This document shows positions 1,082 through 32,188 of a stretch of 32,379 nt of DNA, piece after piece. Every line of letters begins with the position of its first letter. Position 1 is the first letter of the stretch. The DNA comes from a virus: UHGV virus genome UHGV-0235014, one strand, 5' to 3'. Made by a program: the position numbers and the translations under genes. The notes under the pieces were generated by a model. The model did not search any database. It was not told where the DNA came from and saw only the letters and a program-made list of their open reading frames with translations.

Positions 1082-2434
<1,353 letters not shown>

Positions 2435-5902: not shown

Positions 5903-6069
5903 TTGACCAAAATCGAAGTTACGAACAAGAAAGCGTCGAGCGGGCTTTAACGTGCGCTAATTGCGGTCAGAAGCTGCATGTGCTGGAAGTTCACGTGTGT
6001 GAGCACTGCTGTGCAGAACTGATGAGCGATCCGAATAGCTCAATGTACGAGGAAGAAGACGATGAATGA
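5899..6069 (+). CDS. ninF: NinF (GTG start inferred)
   Basis: [55 protein letters not shown] resembles lambda NinF; GTGA overlap with ninD stop; alternative ATG start at 5857. Confidence 0.7.
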
Positions 6070-6784
6070 GTTAATAAATGGCAATGCCATCAAAATGACA
6101 AGCATTGAAATCGCTGAGTTGGTGGGTAAGCGTCATGACAATGTGAAACGTACCATCGAAACGCTGGCTAAAAATGGTGTTATCCGGCTTCCTCAAATTG
6201 AGGTTTCCGAAAGAATCAATAACTTAGGGTTCAATGTTCAGTACGAGCATTACGTCTTCGAAGGCGAACAAGGTAAGCGAGATAGTATTGTTGTTGTTGC
6301 CCAGTTGTCGCCGGAATTCACCGCTCGCCTTGTTGACCGCTGGCGAGAGCTTGAAGAAGCTGCGGTTAATATCCCCAAAACGCTACCGGAAGCGTTGCGC
6401 CTTGCTGCTGATCTTGCTGAGCAGAAAATGCAACTGGAAAACCAGCTCGCAATTGCCGCACCTAAAGTTGAGTTTGCCGATCGCGTTGGCGAGGCCAGCG
6501 GAATTTTGATTGGAAACTTTGCAAAGGTTGTTGGAATTGGTCCAAACAAACTGTTTGCGTGGATGCGCGATCACAAAATCCTTATTGCTTCAGGTTCCCG
6601 GCGAAATGTGCCAATGCAGGAATATATGGATCGCGGCTATTTCACAGTGAAAGAAACAGCGGTCAACACAAATCACGGAATACAGATATCGTTCACCACA
6701 AAAATCACCGGGCGTGGTCAACAGTGGCTGACCAGAAAGCTGCTCGATAACGGAATGCTGAAAGTAACAGGGGAGGCTGCTTAA
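6062..6784 (+). CDS. Roi-like DNA-binding protein / phage antirepressor KilAC-domain protein
   Basis: 240 aa; N-terminal Rha-like region (TSIEIAELVGKRHDNVKRTIETL) and C-terminal KilAC-like region; occupies nin region slot where HK022 has roi; family assignment from memory. Confidence 0.7.
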   Translation: MNELINGNAIKMTSIEIAELVGKRHDNVKRTIETLAKNGVIRLPQIEVSERINNLGFNVQYEHYVFEGEQGKRDSIVVVAQLSPEFTARLVDRWRELEEAAVNIPKTLPEALRLAADLAEQKMQLENQLAIAAPKVEFADRVGEASGILIGNFAKVVGIGPNKLFAWMRDHKILIASGSRRNVPMQEYMDRGYFTVKETAVNTNHGIQISFTTKITGRGQQWLTRKLLDNGMLKVTGEAA

Positions 6785-9786: not shown

Positions 9787-10008
9787 TAACGATAATTTTA
9801 CTCATCATCCTTCACATCTGGCTCTGTAGACAGGGTGGTGATCACTTCTGGAGTGAATCCAGATTAAACATCTCATTGCTGATGCTTGATATTGAGCATC
9901 TGGCGCGCGGTAAGGGGCTGCGTTGAGATAAGAGCCAGTCATCACAAACACCAGGATTTAGCCTCGCATTCGCGGGGTTTTTTTATTCCCAACTCCATAG
10001 GTAATTTT

Positions 10009-10488
10009 ATGACCCAGCATATTGGCGTAAAACTGATTAACGCCTTTCCGATGACGAGACAGGCATATAACGATTTTCGTGGCTGGCAGCTTCCTGCCGG
10101 AGAAAACGGCGAGGACGAAGGCTATCTGGTTGAATATCTGGATGGCGGAAAACCTAACACCGATCGCTTTGATGGCTACGTTAGCTGGAGTCCAAAAGAA
10201 GTATTCGAAAAGGCTTATCGTCCGGTATCAGGGCTAAGTTTCGGCCTTGCCATGGAAGCGTTAAAACAGGGCAAAAGTTTGCAGCGGGCAGGATGGAATG
10301 GGAAAGATCAGTTTGTTTATCTCGTGAAAGGAGAAAAATTAGCGTCTGCGTTGGGTTATGGCTTTGGCGAATATGTTGGCGAGCCAACTTTCAATGACAC
10401 GCTTGTATTGAAAAACTCACAGAACCGCCTTGCTACATGGGCTCCATCCATTGGCGACCTGATGGCTGAAGACTGGCAAATCATTTAA
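10009..10488 (+). CDS. hypothetical protein with C-terminal DUF2829-like (Tad2-like) region
   Basis: 159 aa from ATG 10009 (ORF-track upstream extension lacks RBS and crosses a terminator-like hairpin ending in a T-run at ~9955..9985); C-terminal FGLAMEALKQGKSLQRAGWNGKDQFVYL ... DLMAEDWQII resembles DUF2829 hallmark as I recall it; unverified. Confidence 0.6.
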   Translation: MTQHIGVKLINAFPMTRQAYNDFRGWQLPAGENGEDEGYLVEYLDGGKPNTDRFDGYVSWSPKEVFEKAYRPVSGLSFGLAMEALKQGKSLQRAGWNGKDQFVYLVKGEKLASALGYGFGEYVGEPTFNDTLVLKNSQNRLATWAPSIGDLMAEDWQII

Positions 10489-23590: not shown

Positions 23591-25464
23591 TGGCTAAAGC
23601 ATGGAAAGATGTTATCGCTTCTCCACAGTATCAGGCGTTAACTGAAGAACAGAAAGCACAGGCTCAAGCGCAATATTTTGATGAGGTTGTTGCCCCTAAG
23701 GCTGGTGACAAATGGGCTGAAGCAAGAGATCAGTTTTATGCAGCATACCCTCCACCTCAGCAGCAGAAAGAAGAACCATCATTGATGCAACAAGCTGGTG
23801 ATTGGCTCACAGGTGGTCAAAGTGCAGGGCAAATTGCAGAACAGGCTGGTCGTGGTCTGGTAAACATACCATTTGACGTATTGCAGGGTGGCGCAAGTCT
23901 GATTAATGCAATCAGTCAGGGGCTTGGTGGACCCAAGGTTTTGGATGATGTTTATCGTCCAGTAGACAGACCGACAGACCCATACGCACAAGCCGGTGAA
24001 ACAATTGGTGGGTATTTAGTTCCAGGAGTTGGAACGGCAGGAAGCATGGCTATTGGATCACTGGCAGAGGCCGCAAATCAGAAAGGCGATTTCGCACAAA
24101 ATGCAGCTAAAAATGCCGGAGTTAACCTTGCCGCTCAGGGTGTTCTTTCCGCAGCAGCAAAGGGAATAGGGCGTGGAATAACGGCTATAAAAGGTGATAT
24201 TGCGCCAGAAGTGGCGAAGAAAATTGCCACATCAGAATCGATGGGCGTGACACCAATGACATCTGATGTTATCCCGCCGAAAAATGCTTTCACTCGCGGC
24301 CTTACTCAGGATGCCGAGGGGGCTTTGCTCGGGACAGGCTCAAAGCGAGCGGAGCAATATGCAACGCGTAGTAAGCTGGTAAGCAATTATTTTGACCGTT
24401 TTGGTGAGTACAACCCTGATGATGTGGTGAAATCTCTGACCACCACGTTAAGGGGGCGGAAGGATGCTGCTGGCGCTGTTATCAATGACGTCACCAATAA
24501 AATGGGTAATGCCGCAGTTGATACCACAAATACCATGAATGCTCTGAATACAGCGATCGCAAGACAGGAACGGCTTGGGACTTCAGCCAATCAAAGCCTG
24601 CTTACATCCTTGCGTAACCTACGTGAAGAATTAGCAAACCCTGCAACTGATTTGGATGTTACGTTTGATCTCTTGCGTCAGCACAGAACAGCATTTAGAT
24701 CTAATGTTCAGGGAGATGCTATGGTCTTCCCCAACCAGGCAAAAGCAGCTACCAATATGGTAGAGAATGCAATGTCAAAAGACCTTCGTAACGCAGTTGC
24801 TAAAAACCTCGGTGCATCAGACGCAGCAAAATACCTTAAAGCAAATTCCGATTATGCAAACGTTTATAATAAGGTGCTTAATAAAAACATTGCCAACAAG
24901 CTCAACAAGGCAAGCAGTGAAGCCAGTCCTGAACTTATAAATACCGTTGTATTAAGCAGAAAACCATCTGACGTGAAACGAATCTGGAGCGCACTGGATG
25001 ATAAAGGGAAAGATGCTATGCGTGCAGCTTACGTCAGCAAAATAGCGGAAAAGGCCGGTGACTCTCCAGCCAAGTTCATCACTGAAGTTAATAAGCTGAA
25101 ATCTCAGTCAGGAGGTGAAATTTACAACACTATTTTTTCTGGAAAGCACATGAAAGAACTTGATGCTCTTAATGAAGTTCTACAGCAAACAGCAAGGTCA
25201 GACACCGCAAATGTAGTAACTCAGACGGGGCAATCGCAAGCCAACAGGATAAGGACGATTGGCGCAACTGCGACTCTTGGCGTATCAATGGGGCTTGAGG
25301 CTGGTTTCGGTGCAATGATGCGCTTGTATGAGTCCAAAGCAGCAAGGAATGCGCTCTTACGTCTGGCAAACACTAAAGCTGGAACGCCAGCCTATGAAAG
25401 AGCGCTGAATAACGCCGCAAATGCCATCAGACCAATACTTGCCAATGATGCAACTGATCGCTAA
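23590..25464 (+). CDS. ejection (E) protein, P22 gp16-like
   Basis: 624 aa; synteny; last gene of structural operon before strand switch. Confidence 0.75.
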
Positions 25465-25485: not shown

Positions 25486-26124
25486 TTAATTGCGAATGGA
25501 ATCGCGGAACTCTTTGCTTGATAGAAAAGGATCTGTTCTCCTTAACTCATCATAGTTTTTATTAAACTTTCTTGCTTCACCTGGGTATCTGTTGAACAAA
25601 ACATTGCAGAAAAAAGAGAGCAATAACTCACATATGAATGCTAATACCCTGAAAAATAAAGGTATAAAAAGAAGGGAAGGTTCATTGAAGTCTCTATTCC
25701 AAACAAAATAGACAATCATCCCGACATACCAAATTGATATCCCTATACTGATGATTGTTCCAACAGAGGTAACTACGATCCCGATTAAGTCGGACAGTCT
25801 GTTTGCCAGTAACTCATTTGAGTATCTTGCAATCATATACCGCCAACATTTTGCAATATCATCCTGATCTGTAGAGTCTTCTGGAATAGCTAGGCTTCTA
25901 CATATTGAAGTAGCTCTTTTTTTCTCAACTCTTTTTGAGATCCATCCATTAAAGAGATACATCAACACCTGCGTTGCTATTCCTGCACCAAGTGATATCA
26001 AAGACATCCCCAAAAATCTCCATCCTGGAGATAGTGACTGGTACTGCCAAACAAAAAAAATTAAAAAACCCAATGAGCCTATGACATAGGCTGATGTATC
26101 GCTATATATATCTATTTTTTTCAT
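25486..26124 (-). CDS. polytopic inner-membrane protein; candidate superinfection exclusion (SieA-position) protein
   Basis: Minus strand, ATG 26124 with AAGGAG SD; ~5 predicted TM segments; very AT-rich; downstream of and co-oriented with a repressor gene, between gp16 and the ant module where P22 carries sieA. Confidence 0.7.
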   Translation of the reverse strand: MKKIDIYSDTSAYVIGSLGFLIFFVWQYQSLSPGWRFLGMSLISLGAGIATQVLMYLFNGWISKRVEKKRATSICRSLAIPEDSTDQDDIAKCWRYMIARYSNELLANRLSDLIGIVVTSVGTIISIGISIWYVGMIVYFVWNRDFNEPSLLFIPLFFRVLAFICELLLSFFCNVLFNRYPGEARKFNKNYDELRRTDPFLSSKEFRDSIRN

Positions 26125-26188
26125 TGAGTAGCCACTCCTTAGTTTTGAGCAGAACACCGGATGATAATGTGTCGCTTCCTAAAGGATA

Positions 26189-26830
26189 TCAAAGCAACGG
26201 GATTTCAAGGTAAACTGCGGTTGCCAAAATACTAACATCTTCATTTCTAACAAGAATATTAGGATACATTGGGTTTAGGGATACTAAGTTTGTCTCTATT
26301 TCACCAATGTAAACCTGCTTGAAGCTCAATATTTGCTCTTTATCCAATGATGCTATTACATAATCTTTGCTTTTAGCTTTTACTAGAGGGCTGAACGTGA
26401 CAACTGATCCTCTGGGAAAGCTAATACCTGAACTTGTAGTCATAGCTTCACCTTCAATAGTCAATGCAAATGCAGAGTCACCAACATTGTATATTGCCGG
26501 ATGAAATCTAGACGATGAATGTTCACCTGTGTTTAGGTAATGCATAACTTCATCTAGTTTGAGGATTGGTATTTGCTTTACCAGAACGTCAGGCATGACG
26601 TTTTTTGTTCCAGGCCCCTGACCTTCACCCAGAGCTAACCACTCAGCCGTAGTGCCTAATGCGTTGGCTAATGCCTGCAATACACGAAGCCGTGGTTTAG
26701 CCTCACCACCCTCGTATGCAGCTATTTGACGTTGAACAACACCAGCTAATTTTGACAACTGCGCCTGCGTCATACCCCTGGACTGTCTTGCCAGAGATAC
26801 TCTTGATGGGAATTGATCGTCAAAATTCAT
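26189..26830 (-). CDS. CI/LexA-like repressor (HTH_XRE + S24-like domain with nucleophile Ser replaced by Ala)
   Basis: 213 aa; HTH MTQAQLSKLAGVVQRQIAAYEGG; C-domain aligns to 434/lambda cI but has GEAM in place of GDSM; Lys of FKQV retained. Confidence 0.8.
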   Translation of the reverse strand: MNFDDQFPSRVSLARQSRGMTQAQLSKLAGVVQRQIAAYEGGEAKPRLRVLQALANALGTTAEWLALGEGQGPGTKNVMPDVLVKQIPILKLDEVMHYLNTGEHSSSRFHPAIYNVGDSAFALTIEGEAMTTSSGISFPRGSVVTFSPLVKAKSKDYVIASLDKEQILSFKQVYIGEIETNLVSLNPMYPNILVRNEDVSILATAVYLEIPLL

Positions 26831-26861
26831 TAGTTCACCATAAAAAATTCATTGACTCATA

Positions 26862-26890
26862 CTGAGTGTGAGTGAATAATCAAACTACAA
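26862..26890 (+). promoter_or_regulatory. candidate promoter for arc-like/ant operon in divergent intergenic region
   Basis: TTGACT (26862..26867) - 17 nt - AATAAT; between divergent repressor and RHH genes; operator not resolved. Confidence 0.4.
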
Positions 26891-26929
26891 AAAGTGAGAT
26901 TATGAGTTTTTCAAAAACAGGAGTGCATA

Positions 26930-27103
26930 ATGACTGAAAAGATATCTTCCATCAAGCCGCGTCAGGTTCGTTTTACAGAAAAGGTTGATTCACATATCCG
27001 CGAATCAGCAAAAAGATGCCATAGGTCAATTCAGGCAGAGATAGCTTATCGAATGGAGTTATTGATGAAACTTGAGGCAAAGGGCGATGTTGTCATCCAA
27101 TAA
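26930..27103 (+). CDS. Arc-like ribbon-helix-helix protein (57 aa)
   Basis: ATG 26930 with CAGGAG SD; basic beta-strand PRQVRFTEKV then two helices typical of RHH; directly precedes antirepressor; short, not in ORF track. Confidence 0.6.
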   Translation: MTEKISSIKPRQVRFTEKVDSHIRESAKRCHRSIQAEIAYRMELLMKLEAKGDVVIQ

Positions 27104-27176
27104 AAATAGTGAAGCCCGGCAGTGCGCGAACACAAACCGGGCCTCTATGTCAGTAACCGTATGCAAGGAAACTAAC

Positions 27177-27803
27177 ATGAATATTGTAGCAAAATCAGAT
27201 TACAACTTCCACGGAGTTGAGTTGGTGCCCACCCGTGATATGCATGGTGTTTGGTTTACATCATCTAATATTGCATCTGCACTTAAATATGCAAATAGCC
27301 GTGCAGTAACAATGATTTATAACAAGTATAGCGATGAGTTTAGCGCCGGAATGACTCAGGTACTCGAAGTGAGTACCTCAGGAAATTATCGCAAAAAAGT
27401 GCGAGTTTTCTCACTACGCGGTGCCCACCTAATCGCGATGTTTGCTCGCACTCCGGTAGCCAAAGAGTTCCGCCGCTGGGTGCTGGATATTTTGGATCGG
27501 CAGGCAGAATGCTCACCGATTGCAAAACAGTTTACTGACGAAGAACTGGTTAATCTCTGCTACTTACAATTGTGGATGGAGAAGAGTCAACAAATGTGCA
27601 AACACATCTACCCAGGAATGAAGCAAATTGGTTCTGAGCTTTCAGGAAGAATTTACGATATTGCATATGAGACTCGCTATATGTCAGAAGAAACCAAGAA
27701 ATCACTTCTTCGTGAAATGAAGAATCTTGATACCAACAATTTTGTCGTAAAGAACGCTCAGCCAATGCTGACAAAACTGCGCGGCGAGGAATGGATTCAT
27801 TGA
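27177..27803 (+). CDS. antirepressor-like protein with N-terminal Bro-N domain
   Basis: 208 aa from ATG 27177 (AAGGA SD); YNFHGVELVPTRDMHGVWFTSSNIASALKY fits Bro-N pattern. Confidence 0.75.
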   Translation: MNIVAKSDYNFHGVELVPTRDMHGVWFTSSNIASALKYANSRAVTMIYNKYSDEFSAGMTQVLEVSTSGNYRKKVRVFSLRGAHLIAMFARTPVAKEFRRWVLDILDRQAECSPIAKQFTDEELVNLCYLQLWMEKSQQMCKHIYPGMKQIGSELSGRIYDIAYETRYMSEETKKSLLREMKNLDTNNFVVKNAQPMLTKLRGEEWIH

Positions 27804-27891
27804 TTGGTGCGCCGGACGGCGCAAAAAGAAAACCGCCAGTGTGCTGCTGGCGGCCTATGTCACACCCTTACTACCACATAAGGAATGCCTA

Positions 27892-28617
27892 ATGACTTTG
27901 AAGAATGTAGCAAACATCGGATCCGTTGTCACGGATAAAACCATTGACAGCCAAAGTCTTCTGATGATGGTTAATGAAGCTCGCAAGTTATGTGGAGAGC
28001 CATCAGTACGTAACAACAAATTCATCGAGAAAATTGAGGATGAATTGGAGGGCGAGACCTACACAAAAAGTGTAGGTCGGAAAAACGGGGCTGACATTGA
28101 TGTTATCTCCATGACTATCAAGCAGGCGCTTCGTGTTGCTGCTCGCGAATCTAAAGCAGTTCGCCGAACACTTGTAGACAAACTTGAAAGTATGCAAGAA
28201 GCGCACATTAAAAGCGGTAAATCGTCGAGTGGACTTGTTGAGTATCGCCAGGCACGAACATTGAAAATGACGGTTGAAGCTGTTACCAATCTGTTAGATT
28301 TGATGCCAAATCTTGCGCCGGAAGCAAAGCAGACTGCGGCAGCAAGCATAATCAACCCGATAGTTGGTTTTAATGCAATACCTCTTCCAGCAATAGAAGA
28401 GCATTACTACTCAGCAGGGGAGGTTGCAGAGCAGCTTGGAGTAACGGCAAACAAGATTGGTCGCATTGCTAACGCAAACAACCTCAAAACTGAGCAGTAC
28501 GGGAAGTTCTTCTTGGATAAATCTGCGCATTCAAGCAAACAGGTGGAAGCATTCCGCTACAATGCGGAGGGTGTTAAAGCACTACAACACCTGATTCATG
28601 GGAGCAATGTTGCATAA
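27892..28617 (+). CDS. hypothetical protein in ant operon (possible antirepressor/regulatory protein)
   Basis: 241 aa from ATG 27892 (AAGGA SD); not confidently recognised. Confidence 0.6.
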   Translation: MTLKNVANIGSVVTDKTIDSQSLLMMVNEARKLCGEPSVRNNKFIEKIEDELEGETYTKSVGRKNGADIDVISMTIKQALRVAARESKAVRRTLVDKLESMQEAHIKSGKSSSGLVEYRQARTLKMTVEAVTNLLDLMPNLAPEAKQTAAASIINPIVGFNAIPLPAIEEHYYSAGEVAEQLGVTANKIGRIANANNLKTEQYGKFFLDKSAHSSKQVEAFRYNAEGVKALQHLIHGSNVA

Positions 28618-28838
28618 TGGCAAAGAAAAGATATGGCATTATGCCGCCAAGAATCAAAGGAAGAGCCAGGGTAAAAGGAGATGCTGGAAGGTATCACATT
28701 CTTGGAGTTCTGTGGCATGAGAGAGCTTTAATTTTAAGTAGACCTCATGGGTACATTGAAAAGGTATCTATAGATAGAGTAGAGATTCTTCCCCTTACAC
28801 CTGAAGAAGAAGAAACGTACGGACTTTTTGATAACTAA
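28617..28838 (+). CDS. small hypothetical protein (73 aa)
   Basis: TAATG overlap with preceding gene; followed by strong terminator. Confidence 0.5.
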   Translation: MAKKRYGIMPPRIKGRARVKGDAGRYHILGVLWHERALILSRPHGYIEKVSIDRVEILPLTPEEEETYGLFDN

Positions 28839-28845
28839 CCAACTA

Positions 28846-28875
28846 AACCCGCTTAATTGCGGGTTTTTTCTTTTC
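28846..28875 (+). terminator. intrinsic terminator ending the ant operon
   Basis: AACCCGC-TTAATT-GCGGGTT followed by TTTTTTCTTTT; stop codon of the convergent mnt-like gene lies in the loop. Confidence 0.75.
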
Positions 28876-29110
28876 TAAGGATATCAGCCACAACTTCTTT
28901 TACTCGTTCCGAGATTAATGAGGCCAGCCTCTCTTCTTCATCACGATACCCGCTTACAGGTGATGGTTTGGAGAGTGATTCTTCCATCGTAGCCACAATT
29001 TCGGAATTGATAGACCTGTTATTCATTTTTGCACGTTGCTTAATCTTAGCGTGCAACTCGTGCGTAAGCCTCAAGTGGAACTGCGCCTCATCGTATTTGC
29101 TGTACATCAT
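28853..29110 (-). CDS. mnt: Mnt-like ribbon-helix-helix repressor
   Basis: 85 aa from ATG 29110 (GGTGAGG SD); ...NRSINSEIVATMEESLSKPSPVSGYRDEEERLA... closely parallels P22 Mnt (..NGRSMNSELLQIVQDALSKPSPVTGYRNDAERLA..). Confidence 0.7.
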   Translation of the reverse strand: MMYSKYDEAQFHLRLTHELHAKIKQRAKMNNRSINSEIVATMEESLSKPSPVSGYRDEEERLASLISERVKEVVADILRKEKTRN

Positions 29111-29242
29111 CAATGCCTCACCAAATGGGTGGAATGGCATCGTAAAACCTACTGTACAAATCAACAATCGTACCATTTCGGTATGCAACAAACACCAACC
29201 GTAGCCACGCTGCGGCGATTCCTTGTATCTGGAGCAAATTAA

Positions 29243-32188
29243 ATGACAGACATTACAGCCAATGTTGTGGTAAGCATGCCTTCGCAACTCTTCACTATGG
29301 CTCGTTCTTTTAAAGCGGTAGCCAATGGCAAAATTTATATCGGTAAAATTGACACTGACCCAGTAAATCCTGAAAACCAGATTCAGGTTTATGTGGAGAA
29401 TGAAGACGGTTCTCACGTTCCTGTTTCGCAACCAATAATCATTAACGCTGCTGGATATCCGGTATATAACGGACAGATTGCCAAATTCGTTACCGTGCAA
29501 GGCCATTCTATGGCTGTTTATGATGCGTATGGTGCACAGCAGTTCTATTTTCCCAATGTGCTGAAGTATGACCCTGATCAACTACGGCAGCAATTAGAAG
29601 ACCCAGATGGAGCGAATAAATACCCAAAACTTCAGATAGCAAGATGGAGAGACAGTTATGATGTAAGAGGTTGGGGGGCTATTGGTGATGGTGTTCATGA
29701 TGATACATCAGCTCTATCAGAATTACTTTCTGTTGCAACAGGTGGTGAAAAGATAGATGGGCGAGGGCTTACTTTTAAAGTATCAACTCTTCCAGATGTC
29801 AGTCGATTTAAAAATGCTCGTTTTTTATTTGAGAGAATACCGGGTCAGCCTCTTTTTTATGCTTCTGAAGATTTTATCCAGGGAGAGTTATTTAAAATTA
29901 CAGATACACCGTGGTACAACGCCTGGACGCAGGATAAAACGTTTGTATATGACAATGTCATCTATGCGCCTTTTATGGCTGGAGACCGCCATGGTGTAAA
30001 TAACCTCCATGTTGCATGGGTTCGCTCAGGAGATGACGGGAAGACCTGGACAACGCCGGAATGGCTTACAGATTTACATGAAAACTATCCCACAGTTAAC
30101 TATCACTGCATGAGTATGGGGGTTGTCAGAAATCGCCTTTTTGCTGTAATTGAGACGCGGACCGTGAGCGGAAATAAACTGCAGGTTGCAGAGTTGTGGG
30201 ATCGCCCAATGAGTCGCAGCCTTCGCGTTTATGGTGGTATAACGAAAGCAGCAAATCAGCAAGTCGCTTATATTCGCATTACTGATCACGGATTATTTGC
30301 TGGTGATTTTGTCAACTTCTCAAATTCTGGTGTTACAGGTGTTACCGGGAATATGACGGTGACTACTGTTATTGATAAAAATACTTTTACAGTTACGACG
30401 CAAAATACCCAGGATGTGGATCAGAATAACGAGGGTAGATACTGGAGTTTTGGTACATCATTTCACTCGTCACCATGGAGAAAAACCAGTCTTGGAACTA
30501 TTCCTTCTTTTGTTGACGGAAGCACTCCTGTTACTGAGATTCACAGTTTTGCGACGATTAGCGATAACAGTTTTGCTGTTGGCTACCATAATGGTGATAT
30601 TGATCCACGCGAGCTTGGGATACTCTATTTCTCTGATGCTTTCGGTTCTCCTGGTAGCTTTGTTCGCAGACGCATACCTGTAGAATATGAGGCGAATGCA
30701 TCTGAGCCATGTGTAAAATATTATGATGGCATTCTGTATCTGACGACCAGGGGGACATTAAGTACTCAACCCGGTAGTTCATTGCACAGAAGCTCTGATT
30801 TAGGTACATCATGGAATTCTCTTCGCTTCCCAAATAATGTTCATCACTCAAACCTTCCTTTTGCCAAAGTTGGCGATGAGCTGATTATTTTTGGCAGTGA
30901 GCGCGCATTTGGTGAGTGGGAAGGAGGAGAACCTGATAACCGTTATGCAGGAAATTATCCAAGAACATTTATGACCAGAGTTAACGTCAATGAGTGGAGT
31001 CTGGATAATGTAGAGTGGGTTAATGTTACTGATCAGATTTATCAGGGCGGAATAGTTAACTCTGCGGTTGGTGTTGGTTCAGTTTGTATCAAAGACAACT
31101 GGCTGTACTACATTTTCGGTGGGGAAGACTTTCTAAACCCATGGAGCATAGGGGATAACAACAGAAAATATCCTTATGTTCACGATGGTCACCCGGCTGA
31201 TTTGTATTGTTTCAGGGTGAAAATTAAACAGGAAGAATTTGTTTCAAGGGATTTTGTCTACGGAGCCACTCCTAACAGAACGCTTCCTACTTTTATGTCG
31301 ACGTCAGGCGTGAGGACGGTTCCTGTACCCGTTGATTTCACAGATGATGTTGCCGTCCAGTCACTGACTGTCCATGCAGGTACATCAGGACAAGTTCGCG
31401 CGGAAGTCAAACTTGAGGGTAATTACGCCATTATTGCGAAGAAAGTACCGTCTGATGATGTTACCGCTCAGAGATTAATCGTTAGCGGCGGTGAAACAAC
31501 GTCTTCAGCAGATGGTGCAATGATAACGTTGCATGGTTCCGGAAGCAGTACTCCACGTCGCGCGGTATATAACGCACTCGAACATCTTTTTGAGAACGGA
31601 GATGTTAAACCTTATCTTGATAATGTAAATGCTCTTGGTGGTCCGGGAAACAGGTTCTCGACAGTTTATCTTGGCTCCAATCCTGTGGTTACCAGTGACG
31701 GAACATTAAAGACAGAGCCGGTCTCTCCTGACGAAGCATTGCTGGATGCCTGGGGTGACGTCAGGTATATCGCTTATAAATGGCTGAACGCTGTCGCTAT
31801 AAAGGGGGAAGAAGGGGCGAGGATACATCATGGTGTAATCGCGCAGCAACTTCGTGATGTTCTTATTTCTCACGGACTCATGGAAGAAGAAAGCACAACA
31901 TGCCGCTATGCGTTTCTTTGCTATGACGATTATCCCGCAGTATATGATGACGTCATTACTGGCCAAAGGGAAATGCCGCTGACTGATAATGACGGGAGCA
32001 TCATTGTTGATGAGGATGATAATCCAGTGATGGTAATGGAAGACATCATTGAGCGCGTTGAAATAACGCCAGCAGGATCTAGATGGGGGGTCAGACCTGA
32101 TCTCTTATTCTATATCGAGGCGGCATGGCAGCGCAGAGAAATAGAAAGAATAAAAGCTAGGTTAGACTTAATAGAAGGGAAGCACTAA
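29243..32188 (+). CDS. tailspike protein: P22 gp9-like head-binding domain + endosialidase (endo-N-acylneuraminidase) + C-terminal intramolecular chaperone (S74-like) domain
   Basis: 981 aa; N-terminal ~115 aa conserved tailspike head-binding domain; Asp-boxes SGDDGKTW (30026..30049) and SSDLGTSW (30791..30814); C-terminal region with Ser-x4-Lys (VVTSDGTLK, Ser at 31694..31696) typical of auto-cleaving chaperone domains. Confidence 0.85.

Follow-up and report, generated by a model that had tools for sequence, protein, structure and literature searches.

The virus genome UHGV-0235014 was analysed as a single stretch of 32,379 nucleotides (the window), which carries an antirepressor operon between positions 26,831 and 28,875. 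The operon contains four genes: that of RHH57, a putative ribbon-helix-helix (RHH) protein, the antirepressor gene ant and two further open reading frames (ORFs), ORF241 and ORF73. It is bordered by a divergent gene for a CI/C2-type repressor and a convergent gene for a homologue of Mnt. A small antisense RNA is predicted opposite the start of ant, and a second one, named as241 here, opposite the start of ORF241. The region is, with a probability of about 0.8, the immI ("ant moron") module of a P22-like temperate phage, following the P22 plan with swapped parts and with one antisense RNA for each antirepressor gene.

Positions 26780-27300 are 100% identical to the chromosome of Escherichia coli HS (NC_009800.1), and 26100-29300 show 97% identity to Escherichia phage JEP4 (Lederbergvirus). 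The annotation of JEP4 and the ORF map of the window place the module in a P22-like genome, with the DNA-transfer genes (including the gene 16 homologue) on its left and the tailspike gene on its right; the three DNA-transfer genes end at 25464, and the tailspike gene extends from 29243 to 32188. The immI region of P22 occupies the same slot. A sequence-only reading of this DNA had proposed an immI-type antirepressor operon with a divergent promoter region, and both proposals hold: the operon sits at the canonical P22 position, and the left neighbour is a repressor gene on the opposite strand. The ORFs, the promoter, the GC hairpin, ant and the terminator of that reading all exist, none of them more than a few bases from its stated position. 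It overlooked the second minus-strand terminator and the matching promoter, which belong to as241, as well as the Mnt homologue. The features are compiled in Table 1.

Villafane et al. named the slot the "ant moron" in 2008 and counted the E. coli HS prophage ("HS-1") among the phages compared (PMC2629481). Those authors recognised a putative antirepressor gene and the hypervariability of the HS-1 region, and described HS-1 and CUS-3 as phages that "apparently lack arc", so that control of ant must differ from that in P22 (PMC2629481). The locus is already charted at the cartoon level, and the outline of an immI-type operon is known. New here are repressors unlike those of P22, a sar homologue undetected by curated models and a second, probably undescribed antisense RNA on a second antirepressor-family gene.

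Table 1. Features of the immI-type module in the window
Feature	Position	Strand	Basis or remark
CI/C2-type repressor, 213 amino acids	26189-26830	-	HTH_3 + Peptidase_S24-like; divergent from ant operon
Pant-equivalent sigma-70 promoter TTGACT-17-AATAAT	26852-26880	+	Promoter scan
Candidate operators	26855-26907	unassigned	ACTCA-tac-TGAGT palindrome and TATGAGTTT box
RHH57, 57-amino-acid putative Arc-like RHH protein, first operon gene	26930-27103	+	Sub-threshold profile matches
sar-like antisense RNA, ~78 nucleotides (predicted)	27099-27176	-	Fold, covariance model, covariation
ant, 208 amino acids, Bro-N + P22_AR_C	27177-27803	+	Pfam, PHROG
Psar-like extended -10 promoter TGCTACAAT	27183-27191	-	Within ant codons 3-5; P22 alignment
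as241, antisense RNA candidate, ~75 nucleotides	27823-27897	-	Terminator, covariance model, covariation
as241 promoter GTGACA-17-TACATT, TG in front	27904-27932	-	Promoter scan; within ORF241 codons 5-14
ORF241, antirepressor-family protein	27892-28617	+	phrog_1726
ORF73, 73-amino-acid ORFan	28617-28838	+	phrog_4977, unknown function
Intrinsic terminator AAACCCGC-ttaatt-GCGGGTTT, then T-run	28845-28875	+	Closes operon, between convergent genes
Mnt homologue, ~86 amino acids, Arc/Mnt RHH	28853-29113	-	Pfam Arc; convergent with operon, divergent from tailspike gene

Antisense RNAs opposite ant and ORF241

The start codon of ant (ATG at 27177) follows an AAGGA Shine-Dalgarno sequence. Ant shows only partial homology to Ant of P22: the C-terminal P22_AR_C domain (E=2.8e-14; 53.4 bits against a cut-off of 22.4) is common to both proteins, and the N-terminal half is a Bro-N domain (E=1.9e-10) instead of P22_AR_N. 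The protein matches phrog_245 "anti-repressor Ant" with E=4e-54, and the gene shows 93.7% DNA identity to a gene of Salmonella phage SPN3UB, which is annotated "anti-repressor Ant" in one of two records (NC_019545.1).

The GC hairpin between the genes of RHH57 and Ant has its arms at 27111-27119 and 27137-27145, containing GCCCGG and CCGGGC. The sequence-only reading had located it where P22 encodes the antisense RNA sar; judged by folding, a covariance model and covariation, it is the terminator stem of a diverged sar homologue. In P22, used as a positive control, the Rfam sar model maps to 599->532 with 97.8 bits; the match begins at the base that adjoins the ant ATG, ends shortly after the stop codon of arc and comprises two stem-loops. 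On the minus strand, the window and P22 coincide in the register of TTGCTAnAnTATTCATGTT, which holds the extended -10 and the complementary bases of the ant start codon, and of ACUGAC; the TGnTAnAnT promoter and the ATG are in register as well. The predicted RNA starts on the minus strand at the ant ATG. Stem-loop 1 (SL1) is built from a 6-base-pair stem and a 16-nucleotide loop with the anti-Shine-Dalgarno sequence UCCUU. A short linker leads to stem-loop 2 (SL2), in which the GC hairpin is extended to a 10-base-pair outer stem and an inner stem, followed by ACUAUUUUUAUU; this terminator lies just after the RHH57 stop codon, and its U-run is much better than that of P22 sar. The segment 27176->27098 folds with -33.3 kcal/mol (z=-6.1, compared to z=-2.35 for the plus strand) into the shape of P22 sar.

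Relatives of this RNA were collected by a pattern search of viral contigs. The pattern fixes the promoter and the ATG, so that their conservation is no independent evidence; the structures are independent of it. The 42 unique relatives fall into at least three sequence types, and each folds on its own into the same architecture. Pair 5 of SL1 is GC in 26 and AU in 16 of them, and pair 8 of SL2 occurs as six pair types. In the alignment, 97.2% of cells pair, compared to 85.3% in shuffles, and none of 500 shuffles attains the observed level. Trained on 21 relatives, with the sequence type of the window left out, a covariance model (model R2) finds 27099-27176 on the minus strand with 52.4 bits (E=1.5e-9) as the only significant match in the window. 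By analogy with P22, the RNA is predicted to be transcribed and to repress the translation of ant.

The only Rfam matches at E<=10, a 21.8-bit SymR-like match on the sar-like RNA and chance matches of leader or RyhB type on the terminator, were treated as noise; the SymR-like match reflects no more than the two-hairpin shape of an antisense RNA. A hairpin 85% identical to SL2 (window 27094-27147) occurs in the chromosome of E. coli MLI106K2 (L005 2505-2580). It lies in a P4-like integrative element (integrase, helix-turn-helix protein, YlcI/YnfO, Icd-like, DUF4222, primase), flanked by a YlcI/YnfO RHH-type gene on one side and an Icd-like gene on the other, and folds well on both strands (z -3.6 and -4.3). 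The same match is found in dozens of E. coli genomes, with 52 records at 80-90% identity, and could represent a related antisense RNA or a terminator in satellite elements.

as241 belongs to a sequence family other than that of sar but repeats its design, with the promoter inside the target gene, the body over the ribosome-binding site and the terminator in the upstream spacer. The terminator stem (27856-27830) is followed by UUUUCUUUUU and was called on the minus strand only. The predicted transcript (27897->27823) is complementary to the start codon and the Shine-Dalgarno sequence of ORF241. More than 80 loci yielded 27 unique versions, 65-78 nucleotides long, all of which keep the promoter, its 17-nucleotide spacing and a terminator of hairpin and U-tract. 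The terminator stem covaries, with GCCGCCAG/CUGGCGG[U/C], GCCAACAG/CUGUUGGC, GCCAAUAG/CUAUUGGC and GCCAGUGG/CCACUGGC as its arms. In 19 diverse versions, the proportion of paired cells is 98%, compared to 90% in shuffles, and the covariation score is 0.320, compared to 0.155; none of 500 shuffles reaches either value, and slid controls pair at 26-47%. A covariance model from 14 other loci (model R1), with the locus of the window left out, finds as241 in the window with 56.3 bits (E=5.8e-10) as the sole significant match.

The promoter of as241 is also visible in the codons of its target. Among 15 distinct N-terminal codon strings of ORF241, codon 6 is always xTA (GTA or TTA), codon 7 always xCA for alanine, serine or threonine, and codon 13 always GTC; codon 12 always ends in T and encodes valine, isoleucine, threonine, serine or alanine. 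Invariance of synonymous or variable bases is confined to the -35, -10 and TG elements; adjacent wobble positions vary freely. The same leader and as241 cassette stands ahead of a KilA-N+ANT gene in Yersinia and of a Rha-type gene on another contig. No Rfam family matches as241 at E<=10, literature searches returned no description of such an RNA, and it is probably not previously described.

On balance, these data favour the view that the antirepressor genes of ant morons each carry a portable translational brake, that as241 is a new RNA family and that two sar-type RNAs gate two antirepressors in one operon. The brake would be a short N-terminal leader, MTxxN[VL]AN..VVT, the codons of which encode the promoter of a ~75-nucleotide cis-antisense RNA over the ribosome-binding site. 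This cassette would have been shuffled ahead of at least three unrelated bodies, namely those of the ORF241, KilA-N+ANT and Rha types.

A small hairpin, TGCGCC-GGAC-GGCGCA (27808-27823), directly follows the ant stop codon next to the U-tract of as241; its sequence varies between loci. A third antirepressor-like protein with Phage_pRha and ANT/KilAC domains, similar to Roi, is encoded at 6062-6784 (+) in the nin region. Models R1 and R2 give no significant match near this gene, so that no sar- or as241-type RNA is found there.

RHH57, the operon promoter and the repressors

The first gene had been read from its sequence as Arc-like. Its matches are weak, and all point in the same direction. 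Pfam gives Arc with E=0.011 (16.0 bits compared to a cut-off of 20.4) and ParD_like with E=8e-4, and PHROG gives the Arc-like phrog_228 with E=0.0045. The best match of the family profile among PDB structures is the Arc-family protein AmrZ (3qoq; E=0.028), over the β-strand and both helices with the hRSxxxEI signature. Position and size fit an arc gene directly upstream of ant on the same transcript. RHH57 forms 30 clusters across Enterobacterales with 81-93% identity. Together with a divergent repressor of the helix-turn-helix and S24 type, it recurs in sipho-, myo- and podovirus-type prophages. Every such pair has an ant gene behind it, the type of which varies, and many have a second antirepressor-like gene as well.

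An initial assignment of some RHH57 cassettes of other genera as lacking a sar spacer, with the called ant start overlapping the RHH57 gene, is withdrawn, as their DNA contains a sar-like promoter, SL1 and a terminator. The automatic ant calls start 17 nucleotides inside the RHH57 gene in locus L131 (4158-4250) and at the equivalent position in L134, L137 and L138. In all four, the sar-like elements lie in this stretch, and an ATG follows ~75 nucleotides further downstream. These ant starts are probably mis-called and the gene calls too long.

The operon promoter matches the consensus at 10 of 12 positions and is the only plus-strand promoter match of the scan in 26100-29400. Four diverged cassettes, found in Yersinia, Klebsiella and Hafnia, all have TTGAC of its -35 element unchanged. 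At the other end of the operon, the terminator scan places the stem of the strong terminator at 28845-28866, followed by TTTCTTTTCT; the scan found 9 terminator-like sites, compared to 2.7 expected by chance. Two candidate operators accompany the promoter. The palindrome (26855-26867) lies between the -35 and -10 elements, and the TATGAGTTT box (26901-26909) lies in the operon leader. TATGAGT occurs twice in the promoter and leader region, in inverted orientation, and this 100-nucleotide region holds two of the four occurrences in the 32-kb window. Across five aligned promoter regions, the box is conserved (TATGAGT and TT are invariant and one position varies in L131), whereas the palindrome in the spacer is variable. 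Since RHH57 is conserved at 81-93% between cassettes and the divergent repressor only at 43-48%, the conserved box may be the site of RHH57 and the variable palindrome the operator of the repressor.

The left repressor occupies the place of mnt in P22 and matches HTH_3 (E=9e-13) and Peptidase_S24 (E=1.3e-12) in Pfam as well as phrog_4 (E=7.5e-30). In an alignment with lambda CI, an alanine stands opposite Ser149 and Lys192 is kept (EGEAMT compared to EGNSMT). The repressor is 28% identical to the immC repressor of the window (1483-2115), which keeps the serine (EGDSMT) and the Ala-Gly site. The alignments to lambda CI and the immC repressor show no Ala-Gly cleavage site at the corresponding position of the left repressor. 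The protein thus differs from self-cleaving LexA/CI (S24) repressors in both features, with the serine of the Ser-Lys dyad replaced and Ala-Gly missing. Relatives with 43-48% identity from Yersinia, Klebsiella and Hafnia keep the serine (GxSM), which makes the loss specific to this lineage. On the grounds of the replacement and the missing site, an SOS-inducible immI repressor is rejected for this lineage, and with a dead S24 domain, SOS coupling of the immI module in HS-1 is unlikely. No LexA box was seen in the operon promoter region by eye, a formal scan not having been made.

The Mnt homologue matches Pfam Arc with E=1.3e-14 and is annotated "regulatory protein mnt" in JEP4; in further P22-like phages, too, its gene adjoins that of the tailspike. 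The sequence upstream was searched for a palindrome, such as a Mnt-like operator, and contains none. Directly left of the immI repressor, as sieA in P22, lies a gene for a SieA-like superinfection-exclusion membrane protein (25486-26157, minus strand; phrog_7745, E=7.5e-21).

Downstream genes and alternative explanations

The homology search of the two downstream products, suggested along with the sequence-only reading, assigns ORF241 end to end (residues 1-241) to phrog_1726 "anti-repressor" with E=1.7e-100 and ORF73 to phrog_4977. ORF241 has ~1970 relatives of 241-250 amino acids across Enterobacterales and many genera. Both ORFs had been regarded as unrecognised and as possible effector or anti-defence cargo. 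This does not hold for ORF241, and only ORF73 stays unrecognised. Judged by homology, ORF241 is a second antirepressor-family gene, neither cargo nor a split ant. PADLOC gives only a 15.8-bit helix-turn-helix match for ORF241 and none for ORF73, and neither corresponds to a known defence system by this search. The pair of ant and ORF241 is also found in siphovirus-type prophages of Klebsiella, Morganella and Serratia.

Neither half of ORF241 matches Pfam at E<=0.1, including ANT/KilAC (PF03374), and both represent unnamed domains. An exhaustive search shows that the halves travel separately: the C-terminal half stands behind Rha, ORF6N, KilA-N and Bro-N, and the N-terminal domain ahead of ANT/KilAC. 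The AlphaFold2 model (mean predicted local distance difference test score, pLDDT, 72.7) consists of a β-α-α-β-β-α N-terminal domain, a helical linker and a C-terminal winged helix-turn-helix similar to MerR and Xis. Among viral models (BFVD), the best matches are proteins named antirepressor or KilA (E=3e-8). A sequence search against solved structures found nothing, and Foldseek against PDB gave only domain-level MerR/RacA-like matches with E ~0.2.

The junction of ORF241 and ORF73 is an overlapping TAATG, indicating translational coupling. ORF73 forms only 8 clusters among 5.8 billion proteins, has no match in Pfam, NCBIfam or PADLOC and gives a poor AlphaFold2 model (pLDDT 59). It is present in 37 of 80 ORF241 loci, always with at least 96% identity. 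Conservation is lacking in its first 20 residues, which differ by frame. In some homologues, the N-terminus is an alternative frame overlapping the end of ORF241 (MHNGKEKIW...; window 28598-28720), which suggests indel-driven frame switching at the junction.

Less probable than a role as an antirepressor, though a serious possibility, is that ORF241, with or without ORF73, acts as a DNA-binding regulator or a host-directed "Kil"-type moron of the Rha/Roi/KilA kind, with ORF73 as partner or antidote and the antisense RNA limiting a toxic product. The winged helix-turn-helix of the MerR/Xis/RacA type, the annotation "KilA protein" of the JEP4 gene and the domains in common with Rha, KilA-N and ORF6N proteins would fit such a role, as would the coupled translation of ORF73. 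The KilA-type domain of Phi11 Gp07, a Bro/ANT-type staphylococcal phage protein, is reported to be growth-inhibitory (PMC5944126). Tight antisense control is typical of toxic genes, and the sar-like RNA shows its weak, non-significant resemblance to SymR. On the other side, ORF241 lies behind an Ant gene, directly downstream in 74 of 80 related viral loci, inside repressor-RHH-ant cassettes of podo-, sipho- and myovirus-type prophages, and neither ORF241 nor ORF73 matches a toxin family. The absence of ORF73 from most ORF241 loci indicates that it is no obligatory partner.

That the hairpins are instead plus-strand mRNA elements (attenuators, RNase sites or stabilisers) or leftovers of mosaic recombination, with the promoter-like motifs as by-products of conserved codons, is improbable. 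Module boundaries do lie near both hairpins: identity to other prophages breaks at ~27097, and the matches to SPN3UB and phiKp_30 overlap at 27782-27854. Val13 and Thr14 of ORF241 are conserved residues. However, a U-run follows both hairpins on the minus strand and neither on the plus strand, and many stem positions form G-U pairs in a minus-strand RNA, where a plus-strand RNA would have A-C mismatches. The far better minus-strand fold of the sar-like RNA also contradicts this explanation, as does the restriction of invariant synonymous positions in ORF241 to the as241 promoter elements; the residue opposite TG varies between alanine, serine and threonine, and "CA" is kept. The layout is the same in P22 sar, an experimentally established RNA (cited in PMC2629481).

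A split or decayed ant, which had been named as the outcome that would overturn the sequence-only reading, can be dismissed despite a weak match of ORF241 residues 173-239 to phrog_130 "anti-repressor Ant" (E=5e-4), as Ant is complete with Bro-N and its own P22_AR_C, and ORF241 is a conserved protein of constant length and full-length phrog_1726 similarity with its own Shine-Dalgarno sequence and antisense RNA cassette.

Several points weigh against the reading of the region as an immI module with two antisense-controlled antirepressors. "Antirepressor" is an annotation label for ORF241, for which binding to a repressor is putative, and the MerR-like winged helix of the model suggests DNA binding. 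The assignment of RHH57 consists of several weak matches, all under curated thresholds. Both antisense RNAs are deduced from sequence, folding and comparison. The Rfam sar model (RF00262) has no match in the whole window at its gathering threshold of 43 bits and none at E<=10 in 26100-29400. The conservation of the as241 promoter may partly reflect protein constraint, with Val13 invariant and Thr14 nearly so. The anti-Shine-Dalgarno sequence of as241 lies in a stem and not in a loop, and the single-sequence z is only -2.15. For the gene of the left repressor, neither the promoter scan nor inspection of the aligned regions gave a convincing promoter. Three repressors, RHH57, the 213-amino-acid CI-type protein and the Mnt homologue, are candidates for control of the operon promoter.

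Proposed regulation and relation to known systems

The anatomy of the module, its family relationships and the conservation and covariation of both RNAs are observations; the following mechanism is modelled on P22 genetics and stays conditional. The operon promoter would transcribe RHH57, Ant, ORF241 and ORF73 rightward up to the terminator. Infection would lead to a brief burst of this transcription, in which Ant, and perhaps ORF241, would inactivate CI/C2-type repressors by binding to them, whether the phages concerned are resident or incoming, before RHH57 turns the promoter off. In the lysogen, the promoter would be silenced by the divergent CI-type repressor and/or the Mnt homologue, and the CI-type repressor, having no self-cleavage serine, would not respond to SOS. 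The translation of each antirepressor gene would be damped by its own cis-antisense RNA. Each of these brakes would have its promoter within the first 5-14 codons of the target, its body against the ribosome-binding site and its terminator in the upstream spacer.

In comparison with P22 immI (mnt, Pmnt-Pant, arc, sar, ant), the module shows the same slot between the gene 16 homologue and the tailspike gene and the same order of a strong promoter, a small gene (here for a putative RHH protein) and ant. The antisense RNA of ant agrees in the extended -10 in the first ant codons, the 5' end at the ant ATG, the anti-Shine-Dalgarno loop and the terminator just past the RHH stop codon, and P22_AR_C is the C-terminal domain of both Ant proteins. 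In contrast to P22, the gene divergent from Pant is of the CI type with helix-turn-helix and S24-like domains and is not mnt; the Mnt homologue lies on the right in convergent orientation. RHH57 is not recognisable as Arc by curated thresholds, the N-terminus of Ant is of a different family, and two extra downstream genes and a second antisense RNA are present. The Rfam sar model, which detects P22 sar, misses the sar-like RNA of the window.

The HS-1 "ant moron" is the same DNA in the E. coli HS prophage. In contrast to the apparent lack of arc in the published description (PMC2629481), the region contains a cryptic gene for a putative Arc-like RHH protein, a predicted sar homologue and a second antisense RNA candidate. 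ORF241 resembles the shuffled regulators built from Bro-N, KilA-N, Rha and ANT (KilAC), since each of its halves is found fused to members of this domain set and the viral proteins that match its predicted fold carry the names antirepressor or KilA; it differs in that neither half matches Pfam. Antirepressor modules under the control of LexA or of a repressor, those of the Gifsy/Fels-2 type and that of Tum in coliphage 186, share the feature proposed here, a dedicated repressor that silences the antirepressor gene in the lysogen, but in this lineage the local repressor lacks the S24 nucleophile, which makes SOS coupling unlikely. Antirepressors can also target other prophages in trans (background cited in PMC7067206).

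Outside the module, a 200-amino-acid ORF just after the lysis genes (9886-10488, plus strand) contains a Tad2-like (Thoeris anti-defence 2) domain with a Pfam E value of 2.4e-21.

Antirepressor modules decide whether an incoming phage wakes resident prophages and whether a lysogen stays immune. The puzzle of HS-1, which seemed to lack arc (PMC2629481), may be explained by conserved P22 control logic, as suggested by a small, putative RHH autoregulator combined with a predicted antisense RNA. The sar family extends far beyond the curated Rfam model: its sequence types number at least three and are spread over podo-, sipho- and myovirus-type prophages, so that annotation pipelines miss most sar relatives. 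If true, as241 would be a new family of phage small RNAs with a promoter overprinted on coding sequence, where selection is visible at synonymous sites. The RNAs and the dead-peptidase repressor are candidates to be considered when the inducibility and cross-induction of P22-like prophages are predicted.

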